Assembly (NCBI GenBank): GCA_041665345.1
Contig: JBAYJA010000002.1
Location: 18,649-82,648, forward strand
Origin: Patescibacteria group bacterium
Lineage (GTDB): Bacteria > Patescibacteriota > Patescibacteriia > PEXW01
Direction: 5' to 3'
Length of the DNA: 64,000 bases
The notes beneath the pieces were generated by a model that worked only from the letters and a program-made list of their open reading frames with translations, was not told where the DNA came from and searched no databases. Positions 4,696 to 52,355 of this stretch are shown here, piece after piece (position 1 is the stretch's first letter; every line of letters begins with the position of its first letter). The translations under genes and the position numbers were made by a program.

Positions 4696-5301
4696 ATGAC
4701 ACAACGAAAAGGTTTTACCCTCATTGAACTTTTGGTGGTCATTGCCATCATTGGTATCCTCTCAGCGGTCGGTTTGATCGCTTTGAACGGTGCTCGTGAA
4801 AAGGCACGCGACAGCCAACGTAAGAGCGATTTGGGACAGCTCCGCACGGGTTTGGCGCTGTACTATGACACGAATAATGATTACCCATCGTCAGATGCGG
4901 GAACTGCGAATGGCCACACAACAGATAATGCCGAAGGTACAAATCCAACGCTCCCAACAGCCGGAACCGGGTCTATTGCTACAACGACGGTAAAATGGGT
5001 TCGCGCAGACTCTGGTCCTATTGCTGGGTTCTCAGCAGCAGGAGACTTGCTGTTCGATGCGTTAGTAGCAGGACAAAAGTATATTTCTCGTTTGCCCGCA
5101 GCACCAAATGGTGGAGCGAATAACTCCATGAAGCAGTATTGGTACGCTTCATGTACCACTGCTGGCGCAATAGGCAATACTGCCTACGCGATCGCAACGG
5201 AATTGGAACGTCCAGCTGATAGTACAAAACAGATGTGGATAGTAAACTCCACAAATGGTACAGCAGCTGAAACGACGCCCGCAGCAACCTACTGCTCGTA
5301 G
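4696..5301 (+). CDS. Type IV pilin (prepilin; class III signal MTQRKG|FTLIELLVV)
   Basis: GGAGGT Shine-Dalgarno 8 nt upstream of the ATG. Short basic leader, G/FTLIE cleavage motif with Glu+5 and a hydrophobic alpha1. C-terminal Cys pair (C...C) and terminal Ser. Confidence 0.85.
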
Positions 5302-5416
5302 TCTTGATGTTAGTGAAACCAAAGAAGGACCCAGCGGTCCTTTTTTGGCATACTCATCCATAGAGTAAAAAGTTTTTTTAATAGCAATACGAGTGCCTTT
5401 GTATTATACTAGTAGC

Positions 5417-19883: not shown

Positions 19884-19960
19884 CGGGGTATAGCGCAGTT
19901 GGCTAGCGCGCTTGCATGGGGTGCAAGAGGTCGCCGGTTCAAGTCCGGCTACCCCGACCA
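19884..19960 (+). tRNA. tRNA-Pro (anticodon GGG)
   Basis: Manual cloverleaf. Acceptor cggggta/taccccg, D stem gcgc/gcgc, anticodon stem cttgc/gcaag with loop aTGGGGt, T arm gccgg-ttcaagt-ccggc and an encoded CCA. Confidence 0.85.
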
Positions 19961-20104
19961 CTGGTGCGGAGCTACGCCCGGAATTAAGATTTCCTCCGTT
20001 CATTGGTACGGGTTTCTTTGACGTGGAAAGTTGATTGTCCTGTTCAACGGATATGCTATATTCAGGTTCTGACAAGCGGCGAAACCTCGTACTCCGCTAT
20101 ATTT

Positions 20105-20392
20105 ATGTCCGAATATCTAACCAAACAAGAATTTACCAGTTTTACTAAGGGTTTGTACGCGACTATGCGTCAGAATACCCGTGAAATTATTGAACACTTC
20201 AATCAGAGCCAGTCTCAGCAAAATGTGAGCCTTGATAGGCTAGAAAACGGCCTTCAAAGTGTTTCTGATGATGTTGTTACTATTAAAGTAGCAGTTCTCG
20301 ATTTGACGAATACAGATCGTCACCTGCACAACCTTGTTGATGAATTGCATGATAAAGGGGTTGCAGTGAATAAGAAACGTATTTTTTCTTGA
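20105..20392 (+). CDS. Hypothetical small protein (AT-rich, tRNA-adjacent)
   Basis: ORF in an approximately 38% GC segment next to tRNA-Pro with its own hairpin+T-tract terminator. No recognisable SD or domain. Confidence 0.35.
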   Translation: MSEYLTKQEFTSFTKGLYATMRQNTREIIEHFNQSQSQQNVSLDRLENGLQSVSDDVVTIKVAVLDLTNTDRHLHNLVDELHDKGVAVNKKRIFS

Positions 20393-22331: not shown

Positions 22332-22706
22332 ATGGACCTTCAATCAATCCTAGCGGCGATCGATAGTTTGTCGATGGAACAGTCTCGTCAGCTACGTTCA
22401 AAGCTCGATGACCATTGCGAAAAAATTCGTGCAAGCCTAACCGCGGCATTGCCAGAATTACTTCAGGAGAAGTATGGGGATTGGGACAAAACTTCCAACC
22501 TTGTGTGGAATCGTGAGTGCGAATTCTGGATGTTTGAGGGGGTTGGAATGGAACTGACCGAAGATCAAATCGACGAGTACCGGCGGAAAGCTATGGTAAT
22601 GCTCGAACCAGTGATAGCTGCCTGGGAACCCCTCGGTGTCGAATTCGATGTTGTGACGCACCTTAAGTGTAATAACGGTCTTATCATGGCGTACTTCAAG
22701 GCTTGA
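22332..22706 (+). CDS. Hypothetical protein
   Basis: AAAGGAGGAAAAATG Shine-Dalgarno. 124-aa ORF followed by a hairpin+T5 terminator. No recognisable domain. Confidence 0.6.
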   Translation: MDLQSILAAIDSLSMEQSRQLRSKLDDHCEKIRASLTAALPELLQEKYGDWDKTSNLVWNRECEFWMFEGVGMELTEDQIDEYRRKAMVMLEPVIAAWEPLGVEFDVVTHLKCNNGLIMAYFKA

Positions 22707-22912: not shown

Positions 22913-23656
22913 CTATACTCGCGGCTTTTCTTTTTTCGTCCGCACAAAAGTCCGCTTTCTGTTCTTAGATAGTCTCCTTTCAATTTCTGGGTGGCGTTTC
23001 AGGTATGCAGCAAGTTGCGCTGGCAGTGCATTTGCCGGAACAATTACCTTAACACCCGGTGGAATGACTCGCTGTATTTGTTTCGCAATAATTCCAAAGT
23101 GGGTGCAGGCTAAGATCAGGATGTCGATACCAGAAAACTTTTGCTGCAGTGTTTGTAGCGTTGACTGAATGAATTTCGGTTTTTTAGATTCAACCGCGAG
23201 GACAAGTTTGAATGTTGGAATTCCCGTAACCTGTGTTCCAGGAAACCGAGTTTTGATTTCCGTTTGAAAAACTTTTGACCGAATGGTACTGGGTGTCGCT
23301 AAGATACCAATATGTTTCCCTTTGTGCTTCTCTACGTGTTCGATGGTTGGAATGACAATTCCCAACACGCGCCGGTCAGGGAAGTGTTTGGGGAGCCACT
23401 GCTTTTGGATTTTTCGTAAGGCTTGGGCTGAGGCGGTGTTGCATGCCAAGATTACCAGAGCGCAATCGTGCTCGAAGAGATAGTGTAGGGCTTTTGTGAC
23501 GAGTTTGTAGATTTGTGCCGGCGACTTGGTGCCGTAAGGGAGATTGGCAGTATCCGAATACGCCAGGTAGTCATACCTGGGTAACTTTTTCACAATTTGT
23601 TGTAGGACATGCAAGCCTCCAAGGCCAGAGTCGAATATGCCAATGTAAGTACTCAT
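22913..23656 (-). CDS. murI: Glutamate racemase
   Basis: IGIFDSGLGGL...ACNTAS motifs. ATG at 23656-23654 overlaps the upstream stop by 1 nt (TGATG). Confidence 0.9.
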   Translation of the reverse strand: MSTYIGIFDSGLGGLHVLQQIVKKLPRYDYLAYSDTANLPYGTKSPAQIYKLVTKALHYLFEHDCALVILACNTASAQALRKIQKQWLPKHFPDRRVLGIVIPTIEHVEKHKGKHIGILATPSTIRSKVFQTEIKTRFPGTQVTGIPTFKLVLAVESKKPKFIQSTLQTLQQKFSGIDILILACTHFGIIAKQIQRVIPPGVKVIVPANALPAQLAAYLKRHPEIERRLSKNRKRTFVRTKKEKPRV

Positions 23657-24420
23657 CAATTTTTTTTCTTTGATTTAATTCGGTACCCAAAACGCGTAGC
23701 GCCTCCATAGGAATTCTTTACTACCGGAGATTTGGCGTATTCTTGTAATGATCTAAAGAAACTAACAGACTTTGCTCCCCTTAAGTGGAAGTTAATATAG
23801 TTAATTTTATTTTTTGTTAATATATGATGGTATTTATTTTCAAGATCACGAGCATACATCATTTTCCATGCATGAAATTCTTCTTGATCTAATTTAGCAT
23901 TTTGAATTTCATTTATAACACCTGGCATCAGATAAAAAATTCTATAAAAAATTGTGTGGAATTTAATAATTTCTTTTCTCGATATTTTTTTATTATGAAG
24001 GAATTCAATTTCCTCCTTATGAAATTTTATCCAGCTCAAGTGATAACCGTGAATTACAGTATTCCTAACTGGGTAAATTTCTTTTGAAAGTTTAATTGCT
24101 GCACCAATAATAGTTTTTGAGAAATTATCTTGAAAATTCTTCTGAAAAAATTCTAATTTTTTCCAAGGAAAGTCCCTAATAATCCTGTTAGCCCATTCCC
24201 TTTGCAAAGTGACATCATGATTGAAAAGTATTATTGCTTGATTGATAATTTCAGTAATGTAATATTCAAAAAAAATTGAAAAAAATAAGGCACCAAGAAC
24301 AATTTCCTTAGGTTTAGGTTTTTTCTTTCTTAAAAATTTGTTGCAAAATTCATTATAATAGAGCTCAGAACCAAACTCATTTCCAATAATTATTTTATAA
24401 ATGAATTCCTTTTTCCCCAT
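23656..24420 (-). CDS. AT-rich orphan protein with HEPN-like RNxxxHG motif (candidate toxin/abortive-infection RNase)
   Basis: Roughly 28-30% GC over 765 nt against about 55% in the surroundings. 254-aa ORF with motif RNTVIHG at residues ~139-145 and Lys/Ile/Phe/Asn-rich composition. Stop overlaps the murI start. Confidence 0.6.
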   Translation of the reverse strand: MGKKEFIYKIIIGNEFGSELYYNEFCNKFLRKKKPKPKEIVLGALFFSIFFEYYITEIINQAIILFNHDVTLQREWANRIIRDFPWKKLEFFQKNFQDNFSKTIIGAAIKLSKEIYPVRNTVIHGYHLSWIKFHKEEIEFLHNKKISRKEIIKFHTIFYRIFYLMPGVINEIQNAKLDQEEFHAWKMMYARDLENKYHHILTKNKINYINFHLRGAKSVSFFRSLQEYAKSPVVKNSYGGATRFGYRIKSKKKN

Positions 24421-24748
24421 ATTTCAAAAGTAGCACCGCTGGTATTAAAAGAAAAGCCAAAAAACCACCTATTGGTGGTCTAATCAATCAACATGCAAAT
24501 TGCTACTTCGTTGGTACAGCAGCCTTGGCTGCAGCCTGGGTCACTTGCTTCGCATTTGTTCGAACGCACGACGTACACGCCATCACCCGCTTTCCTTTGA
24601 GGAAAAGGGTTTGGAGGTTGACATGCTGCCGGCGGATGGTAGCAATGTTGGAGTGGCTCCGGCTATTCGCCTTCAGACTCCCTTTGCCGCAAATGGTGCA
24701 ATTACGTGCCATATAAGGTATGCTGGGTGCTGTGCCGGGAAGCCTACC

Positions 24749-25420
24749 ATGTCTTTTTCGCTCAGGCAAGTCCATGACCGTATGCCCTTCCTCCACCTCC
24801 TCACCACGAATCCGTTAGAAGCCGTTGCTTGGGTTTTGGCCATTATTTTGGCCATTACCGTGCATGAATTTAGCCATGCCCTGGTGGCTTGGCTGCAAGG
24901 GGACTCTACCGCCCAGTTGGAAGGCCGGGTCACGCTCAATCCCATAGCGCACGTTGACCCCGTTGGGTTCATCGCCCTCATTTTGGTGGGTTTTGGCTGG
25001 GGCAAGCCGGTGCCATTCAATCCGTACAACCTTAAAGCCAAACGCTGGGGTCCAGCCCTCGTTTCACTTGCCGGCCCTGCGTCCAACCTCCTGGGGGTTG
25101 TAGTTTTTGGCTTGGTACTCCGGTTGGTACTGCAGTTTTCAAGCTTACCATCAGACAACTTACTCATCACTTTTCTCATCCTGTGCGTGCAGTTCAACGT
25201 GGTGCTCATGCTCTTCAACCTGCTGCCTGTGCCGCCATTGGATGGGTCAAAACTCCTGCAATTGCTCCCATCCCGGTTTGACTATATCATCGAAAACCTC
25301 AATAAATACGGGTTTATTATCCTCCTCGCCGTGGTATTATTGGGTCAGCCATTCCTTAGTCGGATTTTTGGCGCAGTGACCGATTTTATGTTCAGTTTGA
25401 TTCTGAAGGGTCTCGACTAA
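24749..25420 (+). CDS. M50-family (site-2 protease-like) zinc metalloprotease
   Basis: HEFSHAL HExxH in a TM helix, multiple TM segments and an LLPVPPLDG motif. Start uncertain; ATG 24749 chosen. Confidence 0.75.
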   Translation: MSFSLRQVHDRMPFLHLLTTNPLEAVAWVLAIILAITVHEFSHALVAWLQGDSTAQLEGRVTLNPIAHVDPVGFIALILVGFGWGKPVPFNPYNLKAKRWGPALVSLAGPASNLLGVVVFGLVLRLVLQFSSLPSDNLLITFLILCVQFNVVLMLFNLLPVPPLDGSKLLQLLPSRFDYIIENLNKYGFIILLAVVLLGQPFLSRIFGAVTDFMFSLILKGLD

Positions 25421-50229: not shown

Positions 50230-50304
50230 GGGTTCGTAGCTCAATGGTAGAGCAGGGGCCTTTTAAGCCCAAGGTTCTGGGTTCGAGTCCCAGCGAGCCC
50301 ACCA
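50230..50304 (+). tRNA. tRNA-Lys (anticodon TTT)
   Basis: Manual cloverleaf. Acceptor gggttcg/cgagccc, D stem gctc/gagc, anticodon loop cTTTTAa, T arm ctggg-ttcgagt-cccag and an encoded CCA. Confidence 0.85.
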
Positions 50305-50522
50305 CGCGTGCAAGCGCCATTCGCCCTCCTCGGGCGTGCTTCGCGTGCCCGATTGCGGGCTTCGGCGCAGCCCGCTTTCCCCGTAAACCCCTTCGGTGTT
50401 TGCGGGGGCCCCATTAAAAATTTAACGAAGCCTCGCTTTGCCCCACAAACCCGTGCTCACTACATTCCGCTTCGTGTTTGTGGGAACCCCCTATCATTAA
50501 GGTTTTTTGGTATACTAAACGT

Positions 50523-51248
50523 ATGTTAGAAAGCAAAGGAGAAGGTGGCCAACAATTCAAAGCACCCGAGGAGGAAGGAAAAAAAGAGAGTAGTTTTTTT
50601 GATGCGCCAATGGATGAAAAAGTTGGTGCACTGAAGACCACGTACCTGAAGGATTTGGCTGAGCTTGTTACTGGTGAAGCAGTGCCAGAATTAACAAAAG
50701 AAGAGGATCCGAATGCATATGAAATCGATCATCATTACGCAAAGGATGAAATAATCGCCGAGTACTTTTCCAGACTCATGAAAGACAAGGTGGTTTTGGA
50801 TCTTGGATGCGGAGTCCAGACTACTGGGTACAAGATCGCAAATTTTTCACATGCTAAAGAATACATTGGCGTGGAGAAGCATTTTGGGAAAAGCGCGTTT
50901 GAAAAAACAGCAGAAACTGCAGCTGGTGAATCAACGCCATTTCAGATTGTACAACAAGACATGGTTGAGTATGTTCAAGATCAGTCGCACTCGGCAGATG
51001 TCATCTTTTTAGTGGGTGTTGACCTCATTATTATTCCTGAAAACGAGTGGGAAAGACTTTTGCAAGGAATCCATCAAACTCTAACTGAGGATGGGCGTCT
51101 GCTCATCGGGGGTGGGATGGGGAAACCATGGCAGACAATTGAGAAATACTTTGTTCAGGACGCTTCGCTGGATGAGGTAAAAGCAAAACCAGAGTACATG
51201 CTTACTTGGATTCCATCAGTATGGAAAAAGAGGATGCACAGCCAGTAG
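50523..51248 (+). CDS. Class I SAM-dependent methyltransferase-like protein (low-GC islet gene 1)
   Basis: Motif I VVLDLGCGVQTTG with a downstream DVIFLVGVD. TATACT directly upstream. Roughly 40% GC. Confidence 0.6.
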   Translation: MLESKGEGGQQFKAPEEEGKKESSFFDAPMDEKVGALKTTYLKDLAELVTGEAVPELTKEEDPNAYEIDHHYAKDEIIAEYFSRLMKDKVVLDLGCGVQTTGYKIANFSHAKEYIGVEKHFGKSAFEKTAETAAGESTPFQIVQQDMVEYVQDQSHSADVIFLVGVDLIIIPENEWERLLQGIHQTLTEDGRLLIGGGMGKPWQTIEKYFVQDASLDEVKAKPEYMLTWIPSVWKKRMHSQ

Positions 51249-51311
51249 TAGTCATTTTGGATTATTTGTAAATAGTGACTCTACCTTTCCTTATCTTAAA
51301 CAGATTTCACT

Positions 51312-52355
51312 ATGATTGAAGGCTCAGGTGAGAATCGTGAACAGTTTAATGCTCCTGATGAGGAGCAAGCTGAAGGAGAAAAATTTCCAACGCTTGTTAA
51401 CCGTAAAGGTGAGCAGCGCATTGTTCGAAGCGCAGAAGAGGCTACTGCCTTAGTTACGGGGAGTAAGGATTGGGAGCGCGGAAATTTTTATCTTCTTGGC
51501 GGAACAAATGAAAAGCTGCGTGACGATTTATTGAAGAGTATAGGTTTGACCTTCGCGGAGCTGTATAAAATCTCTGCACAACACGTGGAAAATGCCCGGT
51601 TAGCGCTAAATAAGGATAGAGAAATACTGTATCTTCAAGAAGGGTCCGAGCAATGGCATGAGGCGGTGAGAAATTATCACTATTTTAACCGGTTGGAAAG
51701 CGAGCAAAGAAAGGAAAGAAATCCAGAAGAAGATTTCCCTCCGCTGTATGCTAAAGTTGAAGGTCTTGAAGCTGAGGTTCTTGAGAAAATTGAAACAACA
51801 ATTGTAAGAATTGCTCATTATATTGGCAAAGATTCACGTGCGTTGCTTGACTCATATGGGAGATTTAATAAAAGTCTCCTTGAGCAGCATGTGGAATTTG
51901 AACCTTTTAATGCAAAGAATTTATACGAGGCGTTCTGTCTCTTTGATTATTATTTTAACTATTCTGATGGTATGAATAAGAAAATCGAAAATGTCATGGA
52001 AAATCACAAGCCAAAAAAAGTAATGAAGTATGAAAAAAATCCACTCCTTAGCCCTTTTACAGAAACATGTAGAAAACTTCAAGCGGAAGGTGCAGAGCAC
52101 ATACCTGCCTGGCTGGCAGAACAAGCAAACATGGCAGGTACATCAGCTGTTTTCAGTGATGCGCAAGAGTTTATGAGTCAATTTGTAAAGGATATGACTA
52201 GCTATAAGGAACGGTATGAGGCTTATATCCTTCAGAATAAGATTGAAAACACACCAGCTTTTCCTGTTGAAATGTCATTCATAACGAATTTTGAAAAGAT
52301 GTCTAAAGAAATTAGCCGTGTTGGAAAGCCAAAGGGTGAATCTGCAGAGGAATAA
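51312..52355 (+). CDS. Hypothetical protein (low-GC islet gene 2), N-terminus related to gene 1
   Basis: 347 aa. N-terminal GSGENREQFNAPDEEQAEGEK parallels GEGGQQFKAPEEEGKKE of the neighbour. Confidence 0.55.
   Translation: MIEGSGENREQFNAPDEEQAEGEKFPTLVNRKGEQRIVRSAEEATALVTGSKDWERGNFYLLGGTNEKLRDDLLKSIGLTFAELYKISAQHVENARLALNKDREILYLQEGSEQWHEAVRNYHYFNRLESEQRKERNPEEDFPPLYAKVEGLEAEVLEKIETTIVRIAHYIGKDSRALLDSYGRFNKSLLEQHVEFEPFNAKNLYEAFCLFDYYFNYSDGMNKKIENVMENHKPKKVMKYEKNPLLSPFTETCRKLQAEGAEHIPAWLAEQANMAGTSAVFSDAQEFMSQFVKDMTSYKERYEAYILQNKIENTPAFPVEMSFITNFEKMSKEISRVGKPKGESAEE

Follow-up and report, generated by a model that had tools for sequence, protein, structure and literature searches.

A foreign AT-rich gene between rpmB and murI of a Patescibacteria genome and its possible relation to HEPN ribonucleases

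How did a strongly AT-rich gene come to lie directly upstream of the glutamate racemase gene murI in a Patescibacteria group bacterium, and does its product, which carries the heptad RNTVIHG, belong to the HEPN-type ribonucleases (RNases)? We examined these questions in a stretch of 64,000 nucleotides (nt) of contig JBAYJA010000002.1 (assembly GCA_041665345.1), hereafter the window, in which the open reading frame (ORF) concerned occupies positions 23656..24420 of the minus strand. The two questions received answers of different strength. Horizontal insertion of foreign AT-rich DNA upstream of murI can be regarded as almost certain, and the full statement, in which this insertion and a divergent HEPN-type RNase are taken together, is held tentatively, with a probability somewhat below even.

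In order to define the insertion, the locus was compared with three syntenic relatives that were reached via MurI homologues (MurI identity of 89% for L004, 81% for L003 and 58% for L005). The features of the locus are as follows.

24503..24712, minus strand: rpmB, ribosomal protein L28 (Pfam Ribosomal_L28, 36.2 bits against a 27-bit cut-off, E = 6e-9)
24458..24481, minus strand: intrinsic terminator of rpmB, a hairpin with an 8-bp stem (4 GC pairs) followed by the T-run TTTTTTG (terminator scan)
23645..24457, minus strand: lineage-specific insertion of ~813 bp (blastn breakpoints at window 24458/23644 against 2250/2290 in L004)
24421..24457, minus strand: 37-nt leader of the AT-rich ORF, without consensus promoter or Shine-Dalgarno sequence
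23656..24420, minus strand: AT-rich ORFan of 254 amino acids (aa) with ATG start and TGA stop; product basic and predicted all-alpha
23654..23658, minus strand: TGATG overlap of the ORF stop (TGA, 23658..23656) with the murI start (ATG, 23656..23654)
22913..23656, minus strand: murI, glutamate racemase (TIGR00067, 160.8 bits against a cut-off of 146.65), its ancestral leader gone

All three relatives keep rpmB upstream of the slot. DNA homology with L004 and L003 spans rpmB and its terminator, ends at window position 24458 and restarts at 23644-23646, within murI codons 3-4, and the terminator forms the left boundary of the insertion. The slot of L004 is empty, with a 39-bp interval that contains GGTGAAGG, resembling a ribosome-binding site (RBS), and the murI ATG (MQIGIFD); the slot of L005 is likewise empty (~40 nt). 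Since these two slots are empty and that of L003 contains another cassette, the ancestral order was the rpmB terminator followed directly by murI. The N-terminus of MurI reads MSTY-IGIFDSG in the window, MQ-IGIFDSG in L004 and MN-IGIFDSG in L003. As the aligned breakpoints show, the genome of the window has gained ~813 bp (24457..23645) and has lost the native murI leader together with the first codons. The foreign origin of the inserted DNA follows from this comparison and from its composition, which makes the ORF an outlier.

The GC content of the ORF was 28.1% against 52.8% across the window, and GC at codon positions 1, 2 and 3 was 34, 26 and 25%, compared with 52, 38 and 49% in murI. Among the 63 gene-like ORFs of the window, it showed the lowest GC content, with z-scores of -5.7 for GC and -3.7 for GC at the third codon position (GC3). 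The product is rich in Lys, Ile, Phe and Asn (K33, I31, F24 and N18) and basic (K+R 45 against D+E 24). When the ORF was shuffled 20,000 times, the longest open frame had a mean length of 61 codons and a maximum of 158, and no shuffle reached 254, indicating that the frame did not arise by chance. An antisense ORF at 23902..24087 encodes 61 aa, the same as the mean longest chance ORF in the shuffles. The insert contains the 37-nt leader and the AT-rich ORF, with no partner ORF besides them. An earlier note on this DNA had proposed an AT-rich, Lys/Ile/Phe/Asn-rich orphan gene, horizontally acquired upstream of murI, with a stop that overlaps the murI start as TGATG and with no antitoxin-sized partner. 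All of this was borne out, and the gene is absent from the slots of all three relatives, where the note had suggested looking for it; its value of ~55% for the GC background was too high. Here, we need to consider that the source data are metagenome-assembled only (a Patescibacteria metagenome-assembled genome), and that an abrupt compositional step is also what an assembly chimera would give, in which an AT-rich fragment of another organism was joined during metagenome assembly. However, two independent assemblies, an ENA contig of 1,075,605 bp and a Logan contig, contain the ORF and agree with the window at 100% identity throughout the region and over both junctions, and the sequence was reported on 4-6 contigs. 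The junctions moreover yield an in-frame functional murI start, exactly where a second genome also has an insert, and we consider a chimera extremely improbable.

The manner of insertion is suggested by what surrounds it. Neither direct nor inverted repeats beyond chance flank the insertion, no tRNA or integrase adjoins it, and no Rfam element was found in the insertion region including the 37-nt leader. Since repeats, tRNA and integrase are lacking, the event looks like illegitimate or flank-mediated recombination, in which the native segment was replaced, rather than transposition or site-specific integration. In L003 (CAZBMC010000008.1), the same slot is filled with an unrelated 579-bp cassette (4748..5326), whose left junction after the T-run of the rpmB terminator is identical. 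This cassette encodes a 117-aa ORF (4863..5216, ~45% GC) with a strong RBS of its own (AAAGGAGG) and its own terminator, and the ORF gave no match to Pfam or PADLOC and no defence match. Because an unrelated cassette occupies the slot in L003, the site is a recurrent insertion point that was struck at least twice. A scan of JGI metagenomes with MurI as query found nothing. A recurrent slot behind a terminator, combined with capture of the start of an essential gene, is tidy, not unprecedented.

The same arrangement would be expected of a free-standing homing endonuclease or another selfish nuclease that spreads by cutting the empty rpmB-murI junction and by repair copying. A single AT-rich ORF lies precisely between two conserved genes, the conserved intergenic site shows the presence/absence polymorphism by which homing endonucleases are judged (empty in L004 and L005, filled in the window), there is no target-site duplication, and a few flanking murI codons appear co-converted. 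Nevertheless, no GIY-YIG, HNH, LAGLIDADG, PD-(D/E)XK or other nuclease was found when the whole protein and five sub-segments were compared with Pfam at E <= 10, and none was found in PHROGs. A mobile gene would be expected to leave further copies, but none was present in ~15 billion proteins, and the L003 cassette at the same point is unrelated and not nuclease-like. We therefore regard a homing endonuclease as very unlikely. A GIY-YIG reading of the N-terminal FIY...LYY...R stretch was set aside as a vague resemblance that lacked profile support.

We then considered what the insertion means for the expression of murI. The stretch ahead of the murI ATG is A-rich and unstructured, and promoter-like minus-strand sites were detected within the ORF at 24136..24107 and 24053..24024. 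The earlier note had described the ORF as translationally coupled to murI; the overlap of stop and start is real, and murI may depend on such coupling. The missing Shine-Dalgarno sequence was rejected as evidence for coupling, because such sequences are few throughout the genome: with crude start calls, GGAG or GAGG precedes ~3% of the gene starts in the window, and neither rpsL nor fusA has one. This genome may thus rely little on Shine-Dalgarno initiation. These observations bear on another explanation, namely that the insert is decaying or neutral foreign DNA, kept for supplying murI with a promoter, an A/T-rich leader and a start codon, in which the frame is intact through recency or because its translation aids murI initiation. 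The insertion did take away the ancestral leader and start of murI, promoter-like sites lie within the ORF and an A-rich stretch before the murI ATG, AT-rich leaders may suffice where Shine-Dalgarno sequences are few, and purifying selection is not demonstrable from the single known variant. On the other hand, an unconstrained frame of 254 codons at 28% GC would soon gain stops, of which the remaining five frames of the region contain 12-32, and the composition of the ORF is coding-like, with GC1 above GC3. Decaying or neutral DNA is therefore an unlikely explanation.

If the inserted gene is functional, what does it encode? The product is an ORFan with a single known sequence variant. A word-indexed search of 5.8 billion clusters and an exhaustive phmmer search over 1.84 billion representatives at 50% identity returned self-matches only, and the putative domain segment alone as query gave no homologue candidates. 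When the full protein and the segment were compared with phages and plasmids by tblastn, only noise was obtained (E >= 3), and a scan of IMG/VR found nothing. Among the candidates that were inspected, P0002 was spurious, a 21-aa stretch having been matched to a tandem-repeat protein, and one tblastn match was a 73-aa phage hypothetical protein, too small for HEPN.

The assignment depends on the heptad and its surroundings. Members of the HEPN superfamily form a four-helix up-down bundle with an Rx4-6H motif, in which a polar residue (N, D or H) follows the R; the motif closes helix 3 or opens the loop between helices 3 and 4, and a conserved acidic residue often occurs as Ex3[KR] in helix 2 (PMC3710099). 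The protein features concerned are as follows.

24046..24066, minus strand: RNTVIHG, candidate Rx4H catalytic motif (residues 119-125, just before the midpoint)
24034..24222, minus strand: putative HEPN core (residues 67-129, helices 2-3 and motif), aligned to positions 35-96 of the 115 in Pfam HEPN_Swt1
24223..24303, minus strand: long hydrophobic helix (residues 40-66), after the basic cluster RKKKPKPK

The heptad R119-N120-T-V-I-H124-G conforms to the motif definition of the HEPN survey, with a polar residue after R, although this definition has low discriminating power. Three copies of the general pattern R.{4,6}H are found in the product, 77% of its shuffled versions also contain it, and so do 143 of the 233 open frames in the window that encode 100 aa or more. 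The form RN...H was found in 3.3% of the shuffles and in five of the 233 frames, and RN...HG in 0.16% and two, respectively. The motif alone is thus weak evidence. The earlier note was right that RNTVIHG is present in the RNxxxH form, but had placed it in the C-proximal half.

The region around the motif gave a profile match to Pfam HEPN_Swt1 (PF18731), which scored 16.6 bits when the full-length protein was the query and 18.2-18.3 bits when segments were used on their own (E = 0.003-0.01). Four queries with different ends all aligned to positions 34-96 of the 115 in the profile, and HEPN_Swt1 was the sole Pfam family that recurred for the central region. When R119, N120, H124 and G125 were all changed to Ala in silico, the match was lost. 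We compared the native sequence with 237 controls that retained the motif, comprising 167 shuffles with RNTVIHG kept in place and 70 natural-helix chimeras, in which native helices of the protein, in either direction, or the reversed native flank took the place of the upstream region. None of the 70 chimeras matched a HEPN model, and none of the 237 controls equalled the native HEPN score, indicating that the flanks contribute to the signal in addition to the motif (empirical p of ~1% or less), although shuffles do not fully represent real helical proteins as a null.

Several results weigh against a HEPN-type RNase. First, the HEPN_Swt1 score is 9-11 bits below the 27.5-bit gathering threshold, and we therefore do not file the product under this family. 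Second, about 15 of the 167 motif-retaining shuffles (~10%) showed weak matches to HEPN families, namely 12 to DUF4209, which has been equated with the C6orf70 HEPN family (PMC3710099), and one each to LA2681, MAE_28990 and Swt1, with a best E of 0.0083; much of the score is thus due to the motif itself. Third, the irrelevant family COX4 matched the product below threshold at E = 0.002-0.005, and controls of the same composition matched STAT_linker at E = 2.7e-4 and GLTSCR1 at E = 0.008. Since irrelevant families match comparably or better, an E of ~0.003 lies within the general noise for such a composition. Fourth, the product matched nothing in PADLOC (E <= 10), PHROGs, NCBIfam or a PDB sequence search (E <= 10), and the ORF has no homologues that could show R119 and H124 to be conserved. 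Finally, the neighbours are housekeeping genes and form no defence island, expression of the ORF is putative, and the scan reported no minus-strand promoter-like site in the 37-nt leader.

Two cautions of a general kind arose from these controls. Helical sequences rich in K, I, F and N give false matches in Pfam hmmscan down to E of ~3e-4, and the bare RNxxxHG heptad draws weak matches to HEPN models, especially DUF4209, which calls for care with motif-based HEPN assignments.

Much of the same evidence would also fit foreign cargo of another function, for example an accessory protein anchored in the membrane, whose gene came from an AT-rich phage, a plasmid or other Patescibacteria, in which case RNTVIHG would be coincidental and the HEPN_Swt1 match motif-amplified noise. 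We regard this as quite possible, with a probability clearly short of even. The unrelated Pfam families with equal or better E-values, the weak HEPN matches of the motif-retaining shuffles and the occurrence of RN...H in other frames of the window all agree with it, as does the lack of any defence, phage or structural match to the product. The basic cluster and hydrophobic helix (residues 31-66, Kyte-Doolittle value of 1.65) also resemble a signal-anchor. Mere coincidence is opposed by the native sequence, which scored above every motif-retaining control for HEPN models and aligned to the same profile region in all four queries.

Two AlphaFold 2 models were composed of helices only, with about four helices over residues 37-143, but their confidence was low (predicted local distance difference test values of 45 and 51), too poor for testing the fold. 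In the predicted helix 70-83, which precedes the motif, the stretch E75-W-A-N-R79 matches Ex3[KR], a type of pattern that we estimate to occur by chance in about one in six helices of such composition. The Kyte-Doolittle maximum over 19 residues was 1.65 at residues 49-50, and the recurrent sub-threshold COX4 match covers this potential transmembrane region. The hydrophobic helix could anchor the protein in a membrane, or it could be core helix 1, buried within the putative HEPN domain.

The earlier note had advised profile searches against HEPN families, and the outcome was divided: a sub-threshold, motif-dependent match to HEPN_Swt1 was obtained, but Abi_2, AbiJ, AbiU2, AbiV, RnlA/LsoA, MNT-HEPN and Cas13/Csm6 families were absent from the Pfam output, and no PADLOC defence model matched. 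Based on these observations, we suggest that the HEPN assignment is plausible, neither established nor refuted by the profiles, and that the product would at most extend the HEPN superfamily by one new singleton.

Taken together, a divergent HEPN-type RNase brought in by foreign DNA would operate as follows. A foreign AT-rich single-gene piece of ~813 bp was inserted between the rpmB terminator and murI, and its insertion removed the ~40-nt murI leader and the first codons, a new ATG now overlapping the stop of the foreign gene. In the most likely reading, residues ~33-148 form a HEPN-fold domain that belongs to the Swt1/Abi2 clade and has diverged strongly, and a homodimer would join two R119-N120-x3-H124 motifs into a metal-independent endoribonuclease site, which would cut RNA and leave 2',3'-cyclic phosphate ends. 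Since there is no antitoxin and the gene shares an expression unit with an essential gene, the product would be tolerated when expressed and hence latent. It might thus be a latent stand-alone effector of the abortive-infection (Abi) type, not a classical toxin of a toxin-antitoxin pair, in which the N-terminal hydrophobic helix and/or the helical C-terminal extension of ~105 aa would hold the RNase off until a trigger such as phage infection. A role in defence or as a toxin is putative. In its furthest form, the proposal would describe a singleton, possibly membrane-tethered HEPN-like RNase that founds a new family and achieves antitoxin-free addiction by capturing the leader, start codon and probably transcription of murI, at a recurrent insertion point behind the rpmB terminator; this combination we consider improbable.

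Beyond rpmB, the neighbouring genes are those of an M50 peptidase, rpsL, rpsG and fusA. We noticed that rpmB is missing among the called genes of the public records, and that the M50 peptidase call (24500..25420, plus strand; 265 aa, start ~24623) overlaps it on the opposite strand. This call is probably over-extended, and a start near 24749 or 24782 would clear the overlap. On the other side of murI, between it and a NUDIX gene, a 124-aa ORF (22332..22706, plus strand) matched no family. The ORF at the corresponding place in L004 (3211..3588, minus strand) is only 32% identical to it, though the flanking DNA is 80-81% identical, and L003, with a gap of ~130-260 bp, has no such ORF. By this comparison, the small gene evolves fast or has been replaced, and its site is a second variable slot beside murI.

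The relatives themselves showed some peculiarities. L003 is labelled 'uncultured Gammaproteobacteria' yet is collinear with the Patescibacteria locus and 81-89% identical, and its public record was probably binned or classified wrongly. Several small rearrangements distinguish the relatives in the neighbourhood of tRNA-Pro and a GSDH-like gene: tRNA-Pro(GGG), at window 19884..19960, is inverted in L003 (8103..8179), and in L004 (5469..6056) the GSDH-like gene is separated from the following ORF by an additional AhpC/Redoxin gene that is not present in the window. Adjoining tRNA-Pro, a 129-aa ORF (window 20003..20392, plus strand; 40% GC) gave family matches at noise level only, and its region is kept in L004 with 79% DNA identity.

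Elsewhere in the window, an ORF at 50478..51248 (43% GC), downstream of tRNA-Lys(TTT) (50230..50304), matched the PADLOC model 'mad2' with E = 6.6e-10, probably due to a methyltransferase domain. The ORF at 51312..52355 (39.8% GC) gave no defence match and holds the only other patch below 36% GC in the window (51751..52100). The region 50230..52355 may be a small tRNA-linked island.

Few defence genes have been recognised in Patescibacteria. If the HEPN assignment is true, the HEPN RNases would gain a singleton at family level, and the small Patescibacteria genomes a rare candidate for an immune or toxin effector that stands alone. Whatever its function, the locus presents a clean natural case of a foreign gene that replaced the expression signals of an essential cell-wall gene, and behind its ribosomal-protein terminator lies a point at which insertions recur. 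Present understanding is not overturned by either point; the value of the locus lies mainly in a candidate for HEPN expansion and in a warning on calls made from a motif only.

Finally, we compared the gene with known systems. Like the free-standing homing endonucleases of phages (T4 seg/mob), it is an AT-rich solo ORF between conserved genes that overlaps the downstream start and is present or absent among relatives, but its product has no nuclease motif or family match and is a singleton in all databases searched. With the HEPN-MNT (HepT/MntA) type II/VII toxin-antitoxin systems it would share a small putative HEPN protein with Rx4-6H, whereas no MNT nucleotidyltransferase gene adjoins it (the flanks are rpmB and murI) and neither HEPN (PF05168) nor DUF86 was matched. 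The stand-alone Abi proteins (AbiD/AbiF, which are Abi_2, AbiJ, AbiU2 and AbiV) are likewise single-gene and antitoxin-less, as would befit a putative horizontally acquired latent RNase effector; unlike them, the product matches none of their Pfam or PADLOC models and lies in no phage-defence context. Bacterial members of the Swt1-like/Abi2 clade are usually fused to AAA+ ATPase, winged helix-turn-helix or restriction endonuclease domains or are encoded in restriction-modification operons (PMC3710099), whereas the product described here is solo, with an unrelated C-terminal extension of ~105 aa, a hydrophobic N-terminal helix and housekeeping neighbours. What it has in common with this clade (PF18731) is the R-N-x3-H form of the motif, a putative helix-only domain of ~115 residues and a possible Ex3R in the preceding helix.

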